Shown in pieces: positions 1 through 16,457 of a stretch of 19,959 nt of DNA. A program made the position numbers and the translations under genes. This DNA comes from a virus. Taxonomy: Duplodnaviria; Heunggongvirae; Uroviricota; Caudoviricetes. A model generated the notes under the pieces. It was not told where the DNA came from. It did not search any database and worked only from the letters and a program-made list of their open reading frames with translations. Location: the IMG/VR virus record IMGVR_UViG_2585427777_000028, positions 1-19,959 of that record; one strand, 5' to 3'. Every line of letters starts with the position of its first letter. The first letter of the stretch is position 1.

Positions 1-330
1 TCACTTCAGCGGGTAGTCATCAAACTCACCATAACGCACTTCGTTGATGATGTACGTGATCACCAAAAATATCGCATCCGGACTAGTTCCATCTTCATGC
101 GCAGGCATATGTTCATGCCTACCTGTCTGCAAACCAGTAATAAGCCATTACAGGGTGATAGTGATGCATCAACTACGTTAAGCGCAGAGAAATGATGCAG
201 TGGTGGGCGGATTGGCTTGATGAAAAGGTGGAGTGATCCACCTTAACCACTATCGAAGATCACAAAGCCTTGCAATCCAGTGCAAAGCTTTGTGTGTCTC
301 AGTTTTGTTTCATCGGTAATTATGTGTTCG

Positions 331-618: not shown

Positions 619-3213
619 CTACTCTATCTCTTTTGCTTTTTTAATTATCAATTCAAGCTCTGTTAAACGAGACTCAATGCGTTCACACCTTCTTCGCTGG
701 AATGCAGCCTCCAACCACAAACATTCATCTGGACGCAATCCCCAACGCTCACCAGCATGTACAACCAGTTCCGTGTCACCAGTATCGTATTCTTCAAAGT
801 ATTCGTGAACGATGTCTTCTCCTTCAGGGGATTTAGCTATAAATGACACCTTGCGCTGTGCCATTACAGGTTGGTACTCATCATCCCATTTATCATGACA
901 TAGCAAGCCAAATCTTGTTCCATCTATCCCCTTTGCAAGAAACGCATCTCTTACCTGCTGTGCAATTGCTCCGAAATGCCAACGAGCAGTATCCGAACCT
1001 TTAGCCTTAATATCGGACAACCACTGGTAAACGATAATATTTACGTCACCCCATGCGTCAAGAATTGCATCCTGATCCACCTCCATGATTTCTGAAAGTT
1101 GCTCTACTGTCAGTGGCTTTGTTTTCAATGTCTGGTCTGAAGTATTTATTGCCCCATTAGTTGCATATACTTGCGTCCACCGTTTAGATGATATCCCACA
1201 TGATGACGTATTATCTTTATTAGCACTTATATAGCCATTAACCTCCGCTGACTGACCGATATACAAATATGAAGATGTTGATAAGGGAGATTTAAATATC
1301 CATTGAGCATTGGTAAAGTCATAAATACCGGTATCACCTTTTTCACTAACATGAAAAGTTACATTCCGTAACGTATTCTTTGCATCATAACGGGCGGCTT
1401 GTGTTGTTGCCCTCGAAACAGTGAATCCTTTGTCATCAAGGTTTGCCTGCTCTATGACTTCACCACCAGGCATAATTTTACCAAGGCTTAACAAACCAGA
1501 GTTAGTGACAATATCATGGGTTGAATCAATGATAATACCAGGCTGATTTCTTGAGGTTGTTTTTACATGCATTACCTGTTGTGGCATTAATGTGTAAAAT
1601 GTAGTTTCTCGCCCACTATCACCATCTGGTATGCCATTTGTATTCCCCATTACAAGGTCATACCCACCTGCAATCATACGGAAAAACATTGCTTCTGGTT
1701 CATATGTAAGATTGCTAACATCTGGCGTTCCGGTATCATTTGGATCTGCTATTTCATAGGCTCTTCCTGCACCTGCCTGTATTTGCTGCACCCCAAGATA
1801 AACACCATCAAGTGTGTACTGATGCAAATATTTTCTGGTTGAAGAATATGCAGATCCAGCCTGACAAAAATAAATAGCAGTACCGTCACACGCAACTGTT
1901 TGCATATCCCTCACAAAATCGGCAATTTCAAATTCAAAAGTTGCTTCATTACGATAATCGTAATTGTACGCCTGCGGGTTAATAAATTTGCTGGTATCAA
2001 ATACTTTTACATAATAGCGAATTTGATCTGGTGTTGATGGGCTCTCACCAGGGCCAACATAACGTTTTGCTGTAGTAATCAGCCATCGACTCATAGGGTC
2101 GGTGCATAAAACATTTACCTGATTCTCGTAACCATCTTCCCATATGAGAAAAAACTCTGGTTCAATTTCACCACCATCAGTAGGGGTGAATCTGGTGATA
2201 TACTTTGCGCGATCCTCTCCTTTAGCTGTGCCAGCTAACCCCCATATCTGTAACTGGCCTCTTGTGTTACGAAAACCAACGCGCCCTATGGTTAAACCAA
2301 GACATTGATGTCCTAATTCTCTACTACCTTTAGTCTCCCAAAGAGGAGTTAACTCTTCATTCCCAAACCAATTATAAGCAACAACTTTATTAACTTCGTC
2401 ACCAGAACTAACGCTGCCACTCACATTTACCAAGCAATAAAGAACACTGTCATAATAATCAAGAACAGCACCCTGTATGACAGTATTTTTAATTGTTGCC
2501 AGTCGCAACCCTGACTTAACATGATTAGGAGTAGAAGGTCTGAAACCTGTATACATCCCCTTTTTTATAGTTTGTATTCTTTTTTCAGTAAAATCAGCAT
2601 CTGGCAGTAATCGATTCTCTGTGCGAAAATAGCCATTTATATACTTATTTCCATCAAAAACTTGATCTGTTATATATGTATTACCCCTTAGATCAACAAT
2701 CCTTCCTGTGATTTGTTTTTCTAACTCTTGAAAAGATAATGTGTCATCGGTGATGCCATCACCTTTTGCTCCCCATCCGCGAGGGTCAGCGTCATCACGC
2801 CACCGAGACATCTGCAATTCATGATATTTTTTAGCACCTTCCGGGTCTTCTAATTGTTGTCTTAATTGGTCAGGATCGTACTTAAGCACATTCGGAAAAT
2901 AGAACTGCTGCGTACCATATGCATCGTAAACAGCCATAGAATGGCCTTGCACGGTTACGAACTTGGCAATCTGTCCGTTATATACCGGATATCCAGCAGC
3001 GTTAATGATGATTGGTTGCGAAACAGGAACGTGAGAGCCATCTTCATTCTCTACATAAACCTGAATCTGGTTTTCAGGATTTACCGGGTCAGTGTCAATT
3101 TTACCGATATAAATTTTTCCATTTGCTACGGTTTTAAAAGAGCTAGCCATTGTGAAGAGTTGCGATGGCATACCTATCACAACATTTGGGGTTATATCAG
3201 GCATATTAGTCAT
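619..3213 (-). CDS. tailspike protein: P22 gp9-like N-terminal head-binding domain, pectate-lyase-like beta-helix, possible C-terminal intramolecular chaperone domain
   Basis: N-terminus [12 protein letters not shown]...[37 protein letters not shown]...[13 protein letters not shown]...VLKYDPDQ matches my recollection of the P22 tailspike head-binding domain. [12 protein letters not shown] is the usual opening of a pectate-lyase-3 beta-helix. The C-terminal region contains SDQTLK, resembling the Ser-Lys auto-cleavage motif of peptidase S74 chaperone domains. The track ORF runs to 3357 from a TTG; I take the ATG at 3211-3213 as the start (the ATG three codons further in is also possible). Confidence 0.8.
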
Positions 3214-4462: not shown

Positions 4463-4524
4463 GTCAATATTTCCTAAGACGATTTGTTGATACCGAAGCC
4501 CTGACTGTTACCGCAGTTGGGGCT

Positions 4525-4728
4525 TCAACTTTCTGCTCTATCAGTTATATCTTTCCCTTCATATACTTCACCTATATTGCTAATGCTGGCAGAACATCCA
4601 AGATGCTTGTATCTTATGATGTCCAACACGCAGTCACTACACAGCATCCGACCTGTTTCTTTAGAGTAAATGTATGTTTGATCAGCGTCTGATTCGCTAA
4701 TGCCGCAGAAACAACATTCTTTACTCAT
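4525..4728 (-). CDS. small zinc-ribbon-like protein (CxxC...CxxC), unknown function
   Basis: 67 aa with Cys pairs (CCFCG ... CSDC). Sits between arc and ant; its start overlaps the arc stop. Confidence 0.5.
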   Translation of the reverse strand: MSKECCFCGISESDADQTYIYSKETGRMLCSDCVLDIIRYKHLGCSASISNIGEVYEGKDITDRAES

Positions 4729-4913: not shown

Positions 4914-4968
4914 AAGATAGCAAAGTGAGTATATCTAGTCAAAATTTTTTTGCATACACTTTGCTATC
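4914..4968. promoter_or_regulatory. divergent Pant / Pmnt control region with a 12-bp inverted repeat pair
   Basis: On the - strand, TTGACT, 17 nt, TATCTT lies upstream of arc. GATAGCAAAGTG (4916-4927) and its exact reverse complement CACTTTGCTATC (4957-4968) flank the region. Confidence 0.45.
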
Positions 4969-4991
4969 AAATTGAATACCAAAGGTGTGAT

Positions 4992-5240
4992 ATGGCAAAG
5001 GGTGTGTCAATTTCTCCAACTACGGTAAGAATCCCTGAATCTTTACGCGAGGCTCTTGCTGTCAGAGCATCAAAAAATGGTCGCTCTGTTAACTCCGAGA
5101 TCGTCATGATTTTGCAAGCCGCGATTGATGAAGATAGGTCGCCAAAGTCAGTTGAGTCATTTGCTCAGCAAGAAGCTGACAAATTCAAAGAGGCGCTGCT
5201 TGAGACGCTAAAGACCATGTATGCTAAGGATGAAAAATAA
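4992..5240 (+). CDS. mnt: Mnt-like ribbon-helix-helix repressor
   Basis: RIPESLREALAVRASKNGRSVNSEIVMILQAAIDE resembles P22 Mnt (the NGRS(V/M)NSE core is shared with Arc). ATG at 4992 is preceded by AAAGGTG. Divergent from arc. Confidence 0.8.
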   Translation: MAKGVSISPTTVRIPESLREALAVRASKNGRSVNSEIVMILQAAIDEDRSPKSVESFAQQEADKFKEALLETLKTMYAKDEK

Positions 5241-5776
5241 TGCTGCACACAATTCATTTCTTATGCCCCGTTAACACTGCCACTGTTGGGCAACTTCAGA
5301 ACCACTGTCTCACCGCATTATCTCAAGGCGCAACTGAATTAAATATCCATATATCAAGTCAGGGAGGGGAAACTGCCGCTGGCTTTACTGCGTATAACTT
5401 TCTTAAGTCACTCCCTGTTACCGTTAGAACTCACAACATAAGCAATGTTGAATCCATAGCTAATATCGTTTTCCTGGCTGGCTCAGAACGTTTCGCAAAC
5501 CCATTATCAAGATTCCTGTTACATCCTCTATTATGGTGCTTTGCCTCCCCAGCCGCCGACCATGCCAGATTGAGAGAGTACGGGAAATGCCTCGATAACG
5601 ATCTTGATCGCTTCGTTGAGACGTTCAATATCGACATCGGAACCCATATTAGGTGGGCATCCCTGATAGCAGACTCGACCATTTTGGATGCTAACAAGGC
5701 TCTTGAGCATGGCATAATTAATTCCATAAAAACTGCAAGGCTGGCATCCAATCAGGCAAACTGGTGGGTTGTTTGA
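5240..5776 (+). CDS. ClpP-fold (S14-like) serine peptidase
   Basis: IHISSQGGETAAGFTAYNFLKSLPVTVRTHNISNVESIANIVFLAGSERFANPLSRFLLHPL follows the ClpP core pattern (INSPGG...AG..IYD......V.T...GQAASMGAFLL.AG..GKR...PNSR.MIHQPL), with candidate Ser and His at the expected positions. Start overlaps the mnt stop (TAATG). Confidence 0.65.
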   Translation: MLHTIHFLCPVNTATVGQLQNHCLTALSQGATELNIHISSQGGETAAGFTAYNFLKSLPVTVRTHNISNVESIANIVFLAGSERFANPLSRFLLHPLLWCFASPAADHARLREYGKCLDNDLDRFVETFNIDIGTHIRWASLIADSTILDANKALEHGIINSIKTARLASNQANWWVV

Positions 5777-6971: not shown

Positions 6972-9140
6972 TCAATCCTGTGCCATTCCGCTTAGCGATG
7001 CCACAATCCCAGCCCTCGACAAACGCTGGAACTCTTCGTTTCCTAGTGCATCGCGAATTGCTTTTACGGCGGCCTTATTTGCCATAAATCTGCGTTCCGC
7101 CGCCGCTAATGCGCCATCACTTGCCCCAACTTTAACTGCCTTTGTCGCCTCTTGAACAGCCTTTTCAATAGCGTAACGACCACTTCTGGTTGCGGATAAT
7201 TTCGCTATCGATCCTTTTGCTATTGCATCAATTGCTCCACCTGCAGCGCCACCCACTATTGCTCCAATAACACCTCCTCCAGAGAACCCTGCGATAGCGC
7301 CAGCGGTTGGAAAAGCGCCAGACAATACGCTCTCTAAAACTGGATGAAGGCCATTCTCAAGAGTGCTAATGGCTGGCATAGAGCGCCCTGTTTGTTCAAC
7401 ATATCGAAGTGGCTTTGTTGCTGCTCTTGCAAGTTCTCCAAACCCCCTGGCAATCCTACCAAGCTCTGGAGAATATCGACTAATTGCCTTCACGTTTTGT
7501 GGGGTAAGAATAGTCGCGATATGCTTAATTCCAGCCTCTTCAGACTTACCTCCGCGTACCCCTTGCGATACCGCATCTTGTAATATTGATGCAATTGCTG
7601 GCGCGCGTTCCGACTCAGGTAGGGCGCTTATTATTTTATGGAACTGACCTGTTCCACTTTTTGCTGAACCCTGCAACGCCTTAGAGCCATTAGTTACCAA
7701 CTGATCAGTTGCAAGGTCTCTACCAAACGCTGCTTCAGCCTGTTCTTGTGCTGTAAATCTTGCTTTTGACAGATCATTAGCTTTTTGCCAGTCATCAAGA
7801 AAACCGCCATTTTGAGCCATTATGCGCATATCTTCCGTTGCTGCATCACGAAGCTCAGCCATGCGCCTTGCCGTATTTGCCTCACCAGACCTTATATACT
7901 TCTGCTCTGCGTCAGCAAGTTTACTTCGCCATGCCTTCATGGCATCAAACGTGATTCCTTTTTTACTAGTTTTAGCATAAGCAGATGCGAATTGTTTCAT
8001 CTCAGGAGTTAGCGGCATGCCGGCCAAAATATCACCCTGAATTGTAGCGTTCAGGTTTGACATTCTGGCCTTTGCGTCAGGCATCGTGGAGCGGACGCTA
8101 TCCCATGCGGCCTTTTCTGAATTTTTCATTTTATCAATACTTGCCAAAACCCTTTGTTTTATGGCTGCACTTTTTTCTGATGCAGTTCCTGCTTCAGCCC
8201 CAAACTCATCCAATGCTGAGTTAAATTTCGACTCTATTTCACTGAATGCTTTGGTGTGTGCATCCTGTGTAATTCCGGGCTTTGACGCCAGAATCCCCTC
8301 CGCCTGAGCAAGACCACGACTACCTGATCTCATGCCAGGAGTTAATGCGTTGATATCTATTCCAGCAGTATCTGCTGCTTTTGCTATTTCGTCTGACACA
8401 TTAGCTGACTGTCTGGCAATAATCTCTCTTCCTGTACCAGACTTTGCCATTTTCGAAACATCAGCAGCGGAATTTATTGCCCCGCCACCAAGAACTTGAG
8501 GTGATTTAGAGGTTAAGATCCTTCCAGCCCCAGAAAGTATCCCCTGAGCACCAATATTTATACCACCGTTAATGGCAGCATTTTGTGCAAAGTCGCCCTC
8601 CTGATTTGCAGCATCAGCAAGAGAACCTGCAATCATGTTTCCTGCGGAACCGATATCTCCAGCGAGCTTTGCTGGCGCTCCAGCAGCTTTTGCCGCTGTA
8701 CCAATTGGCAGGAGATACCCGCCAATTGTTTCACCGGCTTGCGCGTAATGGTCTGTCGGTCGATCGACTGGACGATAGACATCATCCAATACTTTTGGCC
8801 CACCAAGCCCCTGACTGATTGCATTAATCAGACTTGCGCCACCCTGTAATACGTCAAATGGTATGTTTACCAGACCACGACCAGCCTGTTCTGCAATTTG
8901 CCCTGCACTTTGACCACCTGTGAGCCAATCACCAGCTTGTTGCATCAATGATGGTTCTTCTTTCTGCTGCTGAGGTGGAGGGTATGCTGCATAAAACTGA
9001 TCTCTTGCTTCAGCCCATTTGTCACCAGCCTTAGGGGCAACAACCTCATCAAAATATTGCGCTTGAGCCTGTGCTTTCTGTTCTTCAGTTAACGCCTGAT
9101 ACTGTGGAGAAGCGATAACATCTTTCCATGCTTTAGCCAT
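6972..9140 (-). CDS. putative virion DNA-ejection (injection) protein
   Basis: 722 aa with a Gly/Ala-rich hydrophobic C-terminal segment ([36 protein letters not shown]). Lies just upstream, in transcription order, of the immI and tailspike region, where P22-like phages carry ejection genes. Assigned by position and composition, not by recognised homology. Confidence 0.5.
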
Positions 9141-9997
9141 TAATCACCCCATAAAGACGAGAAACCGGACTTATTGCTGTCGCTTCCTGATTTTCGCTCA
9201 CTAACATATGTGTCATAACCTGATGAACTATATCCCATTGATTCAGCCTCCCTTGCTGCAACCTTTTGAAATACAGAATATTGCGATCGGATTTCAGATA
9301 ACTGTTTTCTGACGACCTCTTCAGGCTGTGTTATATCGAGTTTCGCGATCAGGTTTTCCAGTTTTTGGCCTTCAGCATTGGAGAGGCTACCCATACCTCG
9401 CATAGTCTGCACGTTCTGGACAAACGCACCCGACTTTAATTCTTCTATCGCATTACGGTTTGCAAGCCCTTCAGCACTTGTGAAGCCATCTATATTTCTT
9501 CCTTCGAAGCGACCGATACCTTCAAGCTCCTTCTTACCAAGCAAAGAATCTATTTTCTCTATCCCTCGCTCACCAGTAATCAACGCATTGTTGTAATTAT
9601 TGTTGCCATCAAGCCATCTCTTAGCCTGAGACATTCTGGCTGACGTTGCAGCTTTACCGGTTAGAGGATCAATTCCCGTCGCTGCTATCTGTGAGTTAAG
9701 AGACAAAACATCCATATCCTGAAGTTGTCCTGCTCTTTCAAGGGCCGCCTGTGACTGCTTAAACACATACTTGTCGTGATTCAGTCTTGCCATTTGAGCC
9801 TTATAGGAAAGATCCTGCCCCCTAATAGCCCTCGCATTCGTCATGTCATTATTGCGAATGGTTTCGTTAATTCTTTGCTGCTCCTGCTGGCGACCAACCA
9901 TCTTGTCCTGAACAGCAAACGCCTTTTCTGGCCCAAGCGCACCGAGAGACATCGTAGTCAGCATGTGTGATAGTTGTTCATCTGACCAGATAGCCAT
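9140..9997 (-). CDS. putative virion DNA-ejection protein
   Basis: 285 aa; its stop overlaps the start of the 722-aa gene (TAATG). Gln-rich with coiled-coil-like stretches. The true start may be an internal Met because the upstream fragment overlaps it. Confidence 0.45.
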
Positions 9998-10230
9998 TGC
10001 TGACCAAGCGTTGGTGCGATTGTTGCTAACTGATTACCGGTTGCAGTGGAACCCAATCCACCTGTTGCTTCCGCTGCCGCCAGACTCTGATAGCGAGCCT
10101 GACCAGCAAGATCTTTGTACTGCTGAGAGTTGTAATACTGGTTAAGTGCCTGACCTTGCCCTTCCAGAGACGATAAGTTCTCGAGGCTGCCGACATACTT
10201 ATCAGCCAGAGGAGTATTCGATCTGTTTTC
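9958..10230 (-). pseudogene. 5'-truncated gene fragment (C-terminal ~90 codons of a virion gene) abutting the O remnant
   Basis: A - strand frame with no start codon reads ...[83 protein letters not shown]. It begins exactly where homology to O ends. Confidence 0.35.
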
Positions 10231-10424
10231 TTATTGAAGCCATATGTTTTCCGGACATAGGCCAGCATAACTTTCAACTGGCGAGCGGTTAAATCGGCAC
10301 TTGCGATAGCTTCCAGCAGCTCGTTAGCGAATCTGGTGTAACCATCATCGATATCAGCCACTCTTAGCTCCTGTTCGGCAAAGTTACCTCTGCCGAAGTT
10401 GAGTATTTTTGCTGTATTTGTCAT
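10026..10424 (-). pseudogene. O: truncated replication initiator O (N-terminal ~70 codons only)
   Basis: MTNTAKILNFGRGNFAEQELRVADIDDGYTRFANELLEAIASADLTARQLKVMLAYVRKTYGFNKKTDRI closely matches my recollection of the lambda O N-terminus. After about codon 70 the frame reads unrelated sequence to a stop. Confidence 0.7.
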
Positions 10425-10458
10425 AATGACCCCTGTGGATTGATCCAGTCTTTCTACA

Positions 10459-10737
10459 TCAGGCCTCGAAGAATTCGCCGTTCTTCGGGGCTTTTTCTTT
10501 TGTCAGCATTCTGGCTACTTTCTTAGCCAGTTCCGCCAACTCCTCGTCTTCAACACCCCATTCAAGAACAGCCAGAAGCATTCCCATTTTTGGGATGAAG
10601 CTGTCTTTCCATCGCGAAATTTGCGATTCATTAATCCCTAACGCGTCAGCAACCTTTCGCTGACCACGTACAGCAATTCGATTCAGGATGTTGCTTGTAA
10701 TTGCATTCGCTTTCTTGCGAGTACTTGTAAGTTGCAT
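10459..10737 (-). CDS. cII: CII-like transcriptional activator
   Basis: ILNRIAVRGQRKVADALGINESQISRWKDSFIPKMGMLLAVLEWGVEDEELAELAKKVARML resembles lambda CII (...SQISRWKRDWIPKFSMLLAVLEWGV...). Start taken at the ATG preceded by AAGGAAA; the longer track ORF would run through the nut site. Confidence 0.85.
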   Translation of the reverse strand: MQLTSTRKKANAITSNILNRIAVRGQRKVADALGINESQISRWKDSFIPKMGMLLAVLEWGVEDEELAELAKKVARMLTKEKAPKNGEFFEA

Positions 10738-10846: not shown

Positions 10847-11074
10847 TTATGCTGCCAGAAGGTTCTTTTTGCTTATTTCAAGCATTTCGCTTGCTTGATA
10901 TTTGCCACCAGAAATCTCTTCGATTTTTGATGCGTATTTCGTTTTCCCAAAAAACTCAGTCTTAGGGAGGAAGCCGTTTTTGAGCCACTTATAGACAGCC
11001 CTTTCACTAACTCCACAAGCCTTCGCAACTTCAGGGATGCCGACACCTTTAATCGGCTCATCAAGATTTTGCAT
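10847..11074 (-). CDS. cro: Cro-like helix-turn-helix repressor
   Basis: 75 aa with HTH GIPEVAKACGVSERAVYKWLKNG. Divergent from cI, followed by nutR and cII. RBS AAGGA. Confidence 0.7.
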   Translation of the reverse strand: MQNLDEPIKGVGIPEVAKACGVSERAVYKWLKNGFLPKTEFFGKTKYASKIEEISGGKYQASEMLEISKKNLLAA

Positions 11075-11152: not shown

Positions 11153-11860
11153 ATGGTTCAGAATGAAAAAGTGCGCAAAGAATTCGCCCAGCGGCTAGCG
11201 CAAGCCTGTAAAGAAGCTGGTCTTGATGAACATGGTAGGGGGATGGCCATAGCCCGTGCCCTTTCTCTTTCGTCCAAAGGCGTTAGCAAATGGTTTAATG
11301 CTGAGTCTTTACCGCGTCAGGAAAAAATGAATGCGCTTGCGAAATTTCTAAACGTTGATGTTGTTTGGCTTCAGCACGGCACTTCGTTAAATGGAGCGAA
11401 TGATGAAGATACTCTTTCATTTGTTGGCAAATTAAAAAAAGGGTTAGTGCGCGTGGTTGGTGAGGCAATTCTTGGTGTTGATGGTGCCATCGAGATGACC
11501 GAAGAGCGCGATGGGTGGCTCAAAATTTATAGCGATGATCCAGATGCCTTTGGCCTTCGTGTGAAAGGAGACAGCATGTGGCCCAGAATAAAATCAGGAG
11601 AATATGTACTCATTGAGCCTAACACCAAAGTATTCCCGGGTGATGAGGTGTTTGTCAGAACCGTTGAAGGACACAACATGATCAAAGTTCTTGGCTATGA
11701 CAGAGACGGAGAATACCAATTTACAAGCATCAACCAGGACCACAGGCCAATAACGTTGCCTTATCATCAAGTAGCAAAGGTGGAGTATGTGGCTGGTATT
11801 CTGAAGCAATCTCGCCATCTGGATGACATCGAGGCAAGGGAGTGGCTGAAAAGTTCGTGA
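11153..11860 (+). CDS. cI: CI-type prophage repressor (N-terminal HTH, C-terminal S24 LexA-like peptidase domain)
   Basis: C-terminal region contains GDSMWP (S24 catalytic serine motif). N-terminal HTH-like region. Divergent from cro. Confidence 0.85.
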   Translation: MVQNEKVRKEFAQRLAQACKEAGLDEHGRGMAIARALSLSSKGVSKWFNAESLPRQEKMNALAKFLNVDVVWLQHGTSLNGANDEDTLSFVGKLKKGLVRVVGEAILGVDGAIEMTEERDGWLKIYSDDPDAFGLRVKGDSMWPRIKSGEYVLIEPNTKVFPGDEVFVRTVEGHNMIKVLGYDRDGEYQFTSINQDHRPITLPYHQVAKVEYVAGILKQSRHLDDIEAREWLKSS

Positions 11861-11996: not shown

Positions 11997-12284
11997 ATGA
12001 AGGTCTTAAACGTAGAGAAGCTTCACAGTTTTAGCCGGAAGCACAATCAGGCCAAGGGGGCTTTAGACTCTTGGTATGATGAAGTGATAAGAGAAAACTG
12101 GAAAACGACTCAAGACATACGGAATAGATTTAATTCTGCCGACTTCCTTCCTAACAACAGGGTAATTTTTAATATAAAAGGCAATAACTATCGGCTCGTT
12201 GTCCAAGTTGTTTACCAGGCAGGAATGGTCATAGTTGAAAGAGTTGGAACTCATGCAGAGTACGACAAGTGGAGGCTTAAATGA
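11997..12284 (+). CDS. higB: HigB-family toxin (RelE-fold mRNA interferase)
   Basis: NRVIFNIKGNNYRLVVQVVYQAGMVIVERVGTHAEYD parallels E. coli HigB/YgjN (HYVFNVGGNELRVVAMVFFESQKCYIREVMTHKEYD). The toxin is encoded first, as in higBA. Confidence 0.8.
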   Translation: MKVLNVEKLHSFSRKHNQAKGALDSWYDEVIRENWKTTQDIRNRFNSADFLPNNRVIFNIKGNNYRLVVQVVYQAGMVIVERVGTHAEYDKWRLK

Positions 12285-12937
12285 ATCGAACTAGCTGGCG
12301 CATCATTAAAAATAGTGAAGAGCATGCTGCAGCTATGGAAAGGCTCATTGAACTTGCGTCTAGTGATTTACAACCTGGAACTGAAGATTTTGATGAGTTT
12401 GAACTACTAGGCTTGCTTATCGAGCACTATGAGTCACGCGAGTTCCCTATGGACAAGCCAGATCCCATAGAAGCAATCAAGTTCCGTATGGATCAACAAG
12501 GCCTCTCTTATGCCGATATGAAACAATACATTGGCTCAGCATCTAAAGTATCTGAGGTCTTAAATCGTAAGCGTCCATTAAGTCTTTCAATGATCCGTAG
12601 ACTACATGACGGACTTGGAATTCCTGCAGATATCTTAATTCAAGATATGAGCGCAATTGAATGGAGCCTAGTTGACGCAGAGGAAGAAGAAACAGCCATG
12701 ACTAGCGTCATTGCTCGGTGTGAGTCAGCCGTCACATCACCTTCTGCTTATTTCGCTGAAAAGGCTACAGAATCTTACTTTTCAAAAATGTTGTTCAGCG
12801 CAGTAAGGGGTAATGGCAAATGCAAAGAAAAACGGAATGTTTTTTCTTTGATAAGTAACTTGTCATCAAGTTTCACAGCGGCTAGCAACCTGAATGACGA
12901 AATGACTTCTGACGGAAATTACTTATTATTACCATGA
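12281..12937 (+). CDS. higA: HigA-like antitoxin (HTH) with a ~90 aa C-terminal extension, candidate chaperone-addiction region
   Basis: HTH segment LSYADMKQYIGSASKVSEVLNRKRPLSLSMIRRLHDGLGIPADILI is typical of HigA. Start overlaps the higB stop. At 218 aa it is much longer than usual HigA; the tail is Ser-rich and low-complexity. Confidence 0.75.
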   Translation: MNRTSWRIIKNSEEHAAAMERLIELASSDLQPGTEDFDEFELLGLLIEHYESREFPMDKPDPIEAIKFRMDQQGLSYADMKQYIGSASKVSEVLNRKRPLSLSMIRRLHDGLGIPADILIQDMSAIEWSLVDAEEEETAMTSVIARCESAVTSPSAYFAEKATESYFSKMLFSAVRGNGKCKEKRNVFSLISNLSSSFTAASNLNDEMTSDGNYLLLP

Positions 12938-13338
12938 AAATTGAACTCATTAGCAAAAAAGTTGAACGCTTGGTTATGACACGGCTAGAAGGCGATTCAA
13001 CAGCAAAAAAAGCCATAAAAACAACCGTTAATCTAAATAATGAACTCTACACTAATGTGAAGGATTCAAAGCTATTTAGAGTGAGATATTTTGCCTCCGT
13101 AACTATTGAAGGCAGGCTTGAGATGGACATCACATACGACTTTGACTTCCGGTCAGAAGATGATTTTTCTCATGAAATGGCAAAATCATATGAGGTAAGG
13201 TCCATTGCTCCCAATATGGCATATCCCTATATAAAAACATATGCCGAGCAAATTATCCTCATGTCAAACCTTGGTAGGTTCACTCTGCCTTATTTTGATT
13301 TCTTGGCCAATCCCATGGAAACGAACAGTAATAAGTGA
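12934..13338 (+). CDS. SecB-like chaperone, proposed third component of a TAC module
   Basis: APNMAYPYIKTYAEQIILMSNLGRFTLPYFDFLAN parallels the E. coli SecB segment [36 protein letters not shown] (shared PN..(F/Y)PY.(R/K) and hydrophobic pattern). Start overlaps the higA stop (ATGA). Confidence 0.55.
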   Translation: MKIELISKKVERLVMTRLEGDSTAKKAIKTTVNLNNELYTNVKDSKLFRVRYFASVTIEGRLEMDITYDFDFRSEDDFSHEMAKSYEVRSIAPNMAYPYIKTYAEQIILMSNLGRFTLPYFDFLANPMETNSNK

Positions 13339-14690: not shown

Positions 14691-14752
14691 TATGCATAAC
14701 AATAACGCTTCACTCGAGGCGTTTTTCGTTATGTATAAATAAGGAGCACACC

Positions 14753-14893
14753 ATGCAATATGCCATTGCAGGGTGGCCTGTTGCTGGCTGCCCTTCCGAA
14801 TCTTTACTTGAACGAATCACCCGTAAATTACGTGACGGATGGAAACGACTCATCGACGTACTTAATCAGCCAGGAGTTCCCAAAAATGGATAA
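14753..14893 (+). CDS. cIII: CIII-like protein (protects CII from FtsH)
   Basis: MQYAIAGWPVAGCPSESLLERITRKLRDGWKRLIDVLNQPGVPKNG is near-identical to my recollection of lambda CIII, but shorter at the C-terminus. RBS AAGGAG. Confidence 0.8.
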   Translation: MQYAIAGWPVAGCPSESLLERITRKLRDGWKRLIDVLNQPGVPKNG

Positions 14894-15192: not shown

Positions 15193-15873
15193 ATGGGAAC
15201 TGCGACATTAATACTCGGTGAGTCTGGCACCGGAAAATCAACCAGCATGAGAAATATCAATCCAGAGGAAGCAATACTTATAAAACCAATAGGCAAGCCG
15301 CTACCATTTAAATCAAAAGACTGGCTTGCATGGGATGCCAGAGCAAAAAAAGGAACCGTAGTTACCACTGACAAATGGGACGTAATAGTTGCTGCAATTA
15401 AGCGTGCTCACGAATACGGAAAAAGAATCGTTATTGTTGATGACTTCCAGTATGTGATGAGCAATGAGTTTATGCGCCGCTCAGAAGAAAAATCGTTTGA
15501 TAAATTTACTGAGATAGGCCGCCACGCATGGGAGGTGATTAAGGCTGCACAGGATGCACCTGATGACCTGAGAGTCTATTTTCTTGCACATACCGAAGAA
15601 ACCCCTATGGGGCGCGTGAAAATGAAAACTATCGGCAAAATGCTGGACGAGAAAATCACTGTCGAAGGCATGTTTACTATAGTTCTTCGCACTCTTACCC
15701 GCGATGACCAGTTCTTTTTCACCACGAAAAACAACGGTGCAGACACTGTCAAATCCCCAATGGGAATGTTTGATTCCAATGAGATTGATAACGATCTCTC
15801 TTTCGTCGATGCCACTGTTTGTGATTACTACGGCATCAATAATGTTCATCAAATTAAGGAAAGCGCCGCATGA
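15193..15873 (+). CDS. Sak4-like RecA-fold ATPase (phage recombination protein)
   Basis: Walker A GESGTGKST and Walker B-like IVIVDD. About 226 aa, sitting where lambdoid phages carry recombination genes. Confidence 0.55.
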   Translation: MGTATLILGESGTGKSTSMRNINPEEAILIKPIGKPLPFKSKDWLAWDARAKKGTVVTTDKWDVIVAAIKRAHEYGKRIVIVDDFQYVMSNEFMRRSEEKSFDKFTEIGRHAWEVIKAAQDAPDDLRVYFLAHTEETPMGRVKMKTIGKMLDEKITVEGMFTIVLRTLTRDDQFFFTTKNNGADTVKSPMGMFDSNEIDNDLSFVDATVCDYYGINNVHQIKESAA

Positions 15874-16457
15874 GCAACGTAATTTTTACTTATAACGAAG
15901 AAGCAGCACTGACCGCAGGGCAAGGTGGTTTTATTAACGAAACTGGCGCTCATATCATTACCATTACTGAAGCAGAACTAAAGCAATCAGAAAAAGGAGC
16001 CAAATTTATTGAGTTTTCTGGCGAATCCGACGACGGACGTAAAATCCAATATCTTAGCGTCTGTGTTCAGAAAAATGACGGAACGGAAAACAAATTTGGC
16101 GCAAATGTCGTTCACGCCATGATGGGGTGTGCCGGGATTGGACAATTAACGCAACATATGGTTTCCGCCAGTAAATTTGTTGCTCCTGAGTTTCATGGAA
16201 AGAAAATCGGGTTAGTGCTCCAGAAAGTATTAACCACAAACAAAAAGACTGGCGCAGACAGCTACCAGATGGAAATACGCATCCCGTTTATTGCACAAAC
16301 AGGTCAAACCCTTAAAGAAAAGGCGGAAGGCAAGCAACCAGAAACTATCGCCAACATGGTTGCCAGCCTCAAAGATAAAGACAATCGCTCTAAAAACGTA
16401 AGCCAGAATCATGCAGATGATTATGGTTACAACCAGAACGATTACCCTCCTTTCTGA
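15870..16457 (+). CDS. hypothetical protein, possible ssDNA-binding partner of the Sak4-like ATPase
   Basis: Translationally coupled to the ATPase gene (ATGA). C-terminal ...DYPPF is reminiscent of the SSB C-terminal tip (DDDIPF). No canonical OB-fold motif recognised. Confidence 0.35.
   Translation: MSNVIFTYNEEAALTAGQGGFINETGAHIITITEAELKQSEKGAKFIEFSGESDDGRKIQYLSVCVQKNDGTENKFGANVVHAMMGCAGIGQLTQHMVSASKFVAPEFHGKKIGLVLQKVLTTNKKTGADSYQMEIRIPFIAQTGQTLKEKAEGKQPETIANMVASLKDKDNRSKNVSQNHADDYGYNQNDYPPF

Follow-up and report, generated by a model that had tools for sequence, protein, structure and literature searches.

Two near-homology-free joints in an apparently defective P22-like prophage in the sbcB gene of Escherichia coli

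The stretch of DNA analysed here (19,959 nucleotides of IMG/VR record IMGVR_UViG_2585427777_000028, referred to below as the window) most probably represents the central part of a defective prophage of the P22-like (Lederbergvirus) type, which is 21.4 kb long and occupies the 5' end of the sbcB gene of E. coli GCA_000713855.1. According to this reading, to which we assign a probability of about 0.9, an ancestor of about 40 kb lost some 19.4 kb at two joints, J1 and J2, that were formed without homology. The window was 100% identical to contig JOST01000172.1 of this strain, a 49.8-kb contig of a short-read draft assembly. As expected of a defective prophage, the element is collinear with intact relatives to the left and to the right of the gap, and both breaks lie inside open reading frames (ORFs) and shift the frame. 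A sequence-only reading of the same DNA had proposed a scar left by one large internal deletion, and behind it a replication-defective prophage that retains its immunity, tailspike and cargo modules. The scar and the retained modules were borne out, and the defect is deduced from the gene content; the single deletion was not, since the second joint, J2, sits within the very interval that had been assigned to the scar and gene 20 is cut as well. The result is a crippled prophage of an ordinary kind. That prophages decay by deletion has been amply documented (PMC6379469), and the present element adds one more instance and little that is new. The comparisons described below indicate that the deletion is recent and private to the strain: the retained genes are 97-99% identical to those of active phages and of full length, and no insertion sequence (IS) was present, so that the event appears to be a recent one.

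Table 1. Features in and around the joints, in window positions (the genes of the scar region lie on the minus strand, cI on the plus strand).
Feature	Position	Strand	Evidence
Tailspike gene, 861 aa, P22 head-binding domain, retained	619..3204	-	PF09008, PDB comparison
Gene 16, ejection protein, 722 aa, full length	6972..9140	-	Same length in HK620; PF26808; own ribosome-binding site
3' part of ejection-protein gene 20, codons 173-449 (277 codons, 3' 62%)	9140..9973	-	HK620 98.8%, PF16928
Junction J2, gene 7 codon 141 / gene 20 codon 173	9971..9973	-	Base-level alignment
Internal fragment of ejection-protein gene 7, codons 61 to ~141 of 230	9971..10216	-	Alignment to HK620
Continuation of the O' ORF out of frame, 62 nonsense codons in the gene 7 fragment	10026..10214	-	Stop at 10026-10028
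Truncated O (codons 1-70, N7-type replication initiator)	10215..10424	-	N7 BLAST, base-by-base alignment, PHROG profiles, PF04492
Junction J1, O codon 70 / gene 7 codon 60/61	10215..10216	-	Base-by-base alignment
cII, 92 aa, Phage_CII, intact	10459..10737	-	Domain match
cro-position gene, 75 aa, first of the rightward operon	10847..11074	-	Gene call
cI-type repressor, 235 aa, HTH_3/Peptidase_S24, full length	11153..11860	+	Identical-size product in many intact prophages

As shown in Table 1, joint J1 separates a truncated replication initiator gene, O, from a piece of a virion gene. The similarity to O runs from the ATG at 10424, which is preceded by a good ribosome-binding site (aggggt), to exactly 10215. 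Up to this base, the segment comprising cII and the first 210 nt of O was 99.2% identical to phage N7 in BLAST, and the O-like PHROG profiles (232-346 positions) matched only residues 1-70/76 of the 132-aa ORF. The earlier statement that the O homology ends after about 70 codons near 10215 thus proved exact. A full-length O protein consists of an N-terminal iteron-binding part and a C-terminal part that recruits the helicase loader, and only residues 1-70 of it are left here. At the joint, N7-type O sequence up to ...GATCGAATA is followed directly by HK620 gene 7 sequence from ...TACTCCTCTGG. The dinucleotide TA is common to both parents, no filler is present, and the joint is out of frame. 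Because the frames of O and gene 7 differ at J1, the truncated O ORF continues through 62 nonsense codons to its stop. The BLAST E-values of the matches flanking the junctions ranged from 1e-121 to 0, so the similarity is not due to chance.

From 10216 downward the DNA is that of HK620 gene 7, which agrees with the earlier impression of a protein-like segment in a different frame and devoid of a start codon. This segment had been taken for the 3' end of a virion gene, fused to O, and for a C-terminal fragment running into the ejection genes. Both descriptions need correction: the partner of O comes from the interior of gene 7, and gene 7 is itself one of the three ejection-protein genes.

The J1 deletion corresponds to 18,588 bp in the coordinates of phage N7; its content was derived from mosaic relatives (N7 at the left break, HK620 at the right break) and not from the true ancestor, as no parental phage with both arms was found. 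In the annotations of HK620 and N7 the canonical gene order is cII-O-loader-nin-Q-lysis-terminase-portal-scaffold-coat-4-10-26-14-7-20-16. On this basis, J1 removes the rest of O, the ATP-binding helicase-loader gene, the nin genes, Q, and the holin, lysin and spanin genes. It also removes the terminase, portal, scaffold and coat genes, the head-completion genes 4, 10, 26 and 14, and the first 180 nt of gene 7. In the Pfam lists of the genes called between the att repeats, no replication, nin, Q, lysis or head gene was found. The previously suspected absence of the ori-containing part of O, of P, here a helicase-loader gene, and of nin, Q, lysis and head genes is borne out by this result. Without any of the P22-type head genes from terminase to gene 14, the element is a remnant and not a complete member of its group. 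Past the J1 break, at codons 120-148, the O gene of N7 contains four iterons of 19 nt (TGTCTCGAAGTTAGAGACA). When these iterons were sought in the window with up to 3 mismatches, no match was obtained; the origin is therefore gone.

The gene 7 remnant between the two joints measures 246-249 bp. It matches HK620 gene 7 at 97.6% of nucleotides and differs from it in 1 amino acid; a start codon is lacking, and its reading frame ends 3 codons past J2. At J2 the bases CTA are common to the parents and lie within an imperfect 9-of-12 match (GAACAACTACCA in gene 7, GAGCAGCTATCA in gene 20). Compared with HK620, 796 bp are missing at this joint, which is out of frame and 243 bp from J1. When the J2 cut was made in the HK620 sequence, the reconstruction differed from the window at 9 of 447 nt. 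Another gene 7 allele did not provide a longer microhomology at J2: E. coli 55989 has the same CTACCA as HK620.

Downstream of J2, the gene 20 remnant matched phrog_2534 positions 171-420 of 435. The 285-aa ORF called at 9140-9997 starts at a fortuitous ATG in gene-7-derived bases that are read in the gene 20 frame, and this ATG has no ribosome-binding site. Gene 16 matched phrog_770 positions 2-666 of 668. The block of genes 7, 20 and 16 keeps the HK620 order with 97.6-98.8% identity and is followed by arc/ant and the tailspike gene. For annotation, this means that the ORF of 132 aa called "replication protein O" and that of 285 aa called "phage DNA ejection protein" (WP_432757499.1) are debris left by the deletions. 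Pseudogene would be the best label for all three remnants, the O'-gene 7 ORF and the fragments of genes 7 and 20.

Both joints were placed by BLAST and base-by-base alignment against N7 and HK620, as the sequence-only reading had recommended, and were then sought in other genomes. In a megablast search with positions 9700-10700 against 50,697 phage records and 5,426 complete E. coli genomes, the matches covered either half of the query and never both, with the break at 10215/10216. A similar search with positions 9880-10080, around J2, gave no spanning match in the complete E. coli genomes. Neither joint occurred in the two collections, nor was O adjacent to the ejection genes in any of their records, an arrangement that had been named beforehand as evidence against a deletion. 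Exact 24-mers of J1 and J2 were absent from the species-representative genomes, IMG/VR and the JGI metagenomes. By exact-protein and cluster look-up, the fusion ORF formed a singleton cluster among about 15 billion proteins. It was found on one other contig only, in the Logan assembly of SRR1191670, which carries both joints and has 1 base different in 13.5 kb; the NCBI and Logan assemblies may derive from the same reads and are not fully independent. As the joints were found nowhere beyond the source strain, the scars appear to be private to it. In all 18 of the examined loci with an identical cII or cro, cII is followed by complete replication, nin and Q genes, and then by lysis and terminase genes where the 10-kb flank reaches them. 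One of the compared loci, in CP148518.1, occupies sbcB, shares the integrase and the left arm of this prophage, and appears intact from replication through lysis within its 10-kb flank.

These searches also bear on the suspicion that the joints are artefacts, chimeric joins made by the assembler or contained in chimeric reads, and that the real prophage is intact. The contig does come from a short-read draft, and the junctions are seen in one strain only. However, both joints are present in JOST01000172.1 as well as in the nearly identical Logan contig. An overlap of 2-3 nt cannot produce a false de Bruijn join, so that k-mers spanning the joints must exist in the reads. Two artefacts 243 bp apart would moreover be needed, and the contig is continuous from sbcB to dacD with matching att repeats. 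Such an artefact is thus extremely improbable.

The ends of the prophage are marked by the att core, a 13-nt direct repeat (TTTCACGATTACG) whose copies are 21,431 bp apart. One copy is found beside dacD, 98 nt ahead of the start of the window, and the other is inside sbcB just past the integrase gene, at JOST01000172.1 position 27466. The rebuilt empty site, sbcB-dacD, was contiguous in 4,839 of the 5,426 complete E. coli genomes, in one of them at 100%. The gene sbcB is a published insertion site of lambdoid prophages (PMC8309913). The attachment site lies in this gene, and no tRNA was found for it in the window. The prophage supplies a replacement 5' end of sbcB, by which the SbcB N-terminus changes from MMNDGKQQSTFLFHDYE to MTDTDKQPTFLFHDYE; owing to this swap the host gene stays open. 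A literature search for papers naming assembly JOST00000000, or a P22-like phage at sbcB, found none. HK620 and N7 measure 38.3 kb and 38.8 kb, respectively, and intact relatives about 39-40 kb; adding the missing 19.4 kb to the retained 21.4 kb gives about 40.8 kb, slightly above HK620 and N7.

Just inside the right end, at window positions 179-272, a 94-nt remnant was observed. It corresponds, at 96.8% identity, to the final 58 nt of the N7 integrase gene and the 36 nt that follow them in N7. The prophage's own integrase, of 392 aa, is different from this N7-type remnant and has the opposite orientation. The remnant looks like the scar of an earlier exchange of integrase modules.

The arms on the two sides of the gap might alternatively stem from two P22-like prophages, a tandem double lysogen at sbcB or an incoming and a resident phage, whose recombination would have joined a left arm from int to O' with a right arm from gene 7' to the tailspike. 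The product would still be a defective deletion, with another history and more DNA lost. In keeping with this, O matches N7 at 99%, and N7 gene 7 is only 95.9% identical to the fragment, against 97.6% for HK620; the search for a parental phage with the whole window gave a best coverage of 36% in any single genome; and the N7-type integrase remnant near the right att shows that modules were exchanged before. Mosaicism of this kind is, however, normal for single P22-like genomes. On either side of the gap, the genes have exactly the order and orientation of a single prophage that has lost an internal part, a second element is not required, and the sum of retained and missing DNA exceeds the size of the relatives only slightly. 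We therefore regard a two-prophage origin as improbable and retain the loss of DNA from a single prophage.

For the formation of the scar from a single prophage, the following steps are proposed. J1 would have joined O codon 70 to gene 7 codon 61, deleting everything from the origin through the start of gene 7, and J2 would have taken out the 796 bp between the middle of gene 7 and codon 173 of gene 20. Since both joints shift the frame, have no filler and share only 2-3 bases between their parents, they were presumably formed by RecA-independent illegitimate recombination, either end joining or replication slippage and template switching. There may have been two successive deletions, or one complex event with two template switches that left a 246-bp island. 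The microhomology that was to be looked for at the junction is present, and it is minimal: 2 nt (TA) at J1 and 3 nt (CTA) at J2. By simple probability, an overlap of 2 nt or more is expected in 16% of random joints, and one of 3 nt or more in 5%. The microhomologies are at most weakly above chance, so they are weak evidence and do not identify the mechanism.

Other modes of rearrangement were considered and rejected. No IS sequences and no extra bases are found at J1 or J2, which rules out an IS-mediated deletion. Homologous recombination between repeats is excluded by the parents sharing only 2-3 nt, and an inversion or translocation by both flanks keeping their orientation and canonical order. 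Aberrant excision of lambda in E. coli proceeds by illegitimate recombination that has been likened to microhomology-mediated end joining (PMC11372144). The products described in such studies (PMC11372144, PMC3375238) resemble the present joints, with unrelated sequences, 0 to a few shared bases, no filler and no mobile element. In contrast to those studies, only products were read here, and a dependence on RecQ, SSB or RecJ cannot be inferred from sequence.

It is conceivable, at a rather low probability, that the history differs from plain deletional decay in one of two ways. Either a single template-switching event of the MMBIR/FoSTeS type grounded the prophage in one step, the gene 7 piece being a templated island captured between two jumps, or the remnant is already a selected immunity or defence island. 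The former would provide a case of such a complex rearrangement from nature, in a bacterium.

Outside the scar, the genes appear to have kept their full length, among them int, cI, the HigB-type module, gene 16 and the tailspike gene. Beyond cI, a gene for a HigB-type toxin is accompanied by two partner ORFs; next come N, cIII, kil, genes for recombination and against RecBCD, and ea-type genes. Past gene 16, towards the tailspike gene, is an immI-type region with Arc-family genes, the Ant antirepressor and a Clp-protease-like gene; its assignment to immI is based on Arc and Bro-N/P22_AR_C domains and on the sar RNA. This content raises the question of whether the reduced element is a selected functional unit, as a domesticated defence or immunity island (repressor, HigB-type module, immI, Clp-like protease) or as a helper-dependent satellite. 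Grounded prophages have been argued to be favoured, as they give immunity without the risk of lysis (PMC6379469), and the full length of all retained genes outside the scar would suit such a role. Intact retained genes are, however, equally expected after a very recent deletion. The singleton status of the fusion ORF and its absence from all DNA collections searched give no indication that the configuration has spread or been conserved; what remains at the joints are frame-shifted fragments and not tidy gene boundaries; and with the terminase region the P22-type packaging site has gone, leaving no evident route to packaging by a helper. Selection for such a unit is hence very unlikely, and a recent deletion that crippled the prophage is the preferred reading.

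Several properties can be predicted for a prophage with this gene content. It should still make repressor, stay silent and confer immunity, as cI is intact. Upon SOS induction, judging from established lambda and P22 biology, the leftward and rightward operons would be expressed, with N, kil, the recombination genes, cro, cII and the O' stub. No replication, Q-dependent late transcription, lysis or particles would be expected to follow. With int and the two att copies still in place, the prophage may be able to excise, which would cure the cell. The prophage should accordingly be scored as defective and not as an inducible phage.

The closest phages for comparison are the Lederbergvirus members HK620 (AF335538) and N7 (MH717096), which share with this prophage the immI region (arc, ant and sar RNA), the P22 head-binding domain of the tailspike and the flanking gene order. 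They differ from it in possessing the 18.6 kb from O codon 70 to gene 7 codon 61 and the 796 bp from gene 7 to gene 20. The present prophage in turn has a different integrase and the sbcB attachment site, a HigB-type module in the cI-N interval, and a tailspike centre unrelated to solved tailspikes. In the state reached, it resembles the cryptic lambdoid prophages Rac, DLP12, Qin and e14 of K-12 (PMC6379469), in which essential modules were likewise lost by internal deletion and regulatory and accessory genes were kept between att sites. Unlike these, it is P22-like and not lambda-like in its virion genes, occurs in one strain and is not fixed in a lineage, and appears very young, judging from the 97-99% identity, the presence of int and both att copies, and the absence of IS. 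The case is thus a clean, base-resolved and apparently very recent one of a temperate phage grounded by near-homology-free joints. Such snapshots help to estimate the rates and mechanisms of prophage decay, a phenomenon that is itself well known.

In laboratory recombineering strains, the lambda prophage carries cI857 and a deletion from cro to bioA and retains the pL operon. There, as in the present prophage, the repressor and the leftward recombination operon are kept, whereas the genes for replication, lysis and virion structure have been taken out; the resulting element is non-lethal and non-productive. The prophage described here differs in being natural and in keeping cro, cII, the O stub, gene 16, the tailspike gene and kil.

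The tailspike gene was also compared with known domains and structures. Its N-terminal head-binding domain matched PF09008 with E=1e-63, and residues 1-118 matched the N-domains of the Sf6 and P22 tailspikes in the PDB. For the central ~520 residues, no sequence relative was found among solved structures. The C-terminus carries an intramolecular chaperone domain of the endosialidase type (PF13884; PDB 3gw6).

Further observations were made in the retained regions. An oop-like antisense RNA unit at 10399-10505 (+) survives the deletion. Its promoter-like site, TTGAGT-17-CATAAT with an upstream TG, overlaps the O start codon, and a 14-bp hairpin with a U-run at 10461-10493 is antisense to the 3' end of cII. 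The fold has a predicted energy of -27.9 kcal/mol (z = -4.8), and the unit has 1 nt different from phage N7; it gave no match in Rfam. Two other RNA elements were recognized by Rfam, the sar antisense RNA of P22 immI at 4464-4530 (+), with 74.5 bits (gathering score, 43), and the lambda cIII thermoregulator element at 14740-14798 (+), with 88.5 bits, above the gathering score.

In the interval between cI and N, at the position of lambda rexAB, three co-oriented overlapping ORFs are located at 11997-13338 (+). They encode a HigB-family toxin of 95 aa (PF09907, E=5e-30), a 218-aa HTH protein (phrog_11202) and a 134-aa protein (phrog_10298), and may represent a toxin-antitoxin or defence cargo module. 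In the immI region, at 4950-5776 (+), an Arc/Mnt-like ribbon-helix-helix gene is directly followed by a 178-aa gene product of the Clp-protease family, which is an unusual partner for a repressor in the Mnt position. Moreover, the recombination module at 15193-16457 (+) consists of a 226-aa AAA_24-type ATPase and a 195-aa protein matching the SSB-type phrog_743, and it replaces the Erf, RecT or Rad52-type annealases found in relatives that share the same cII.
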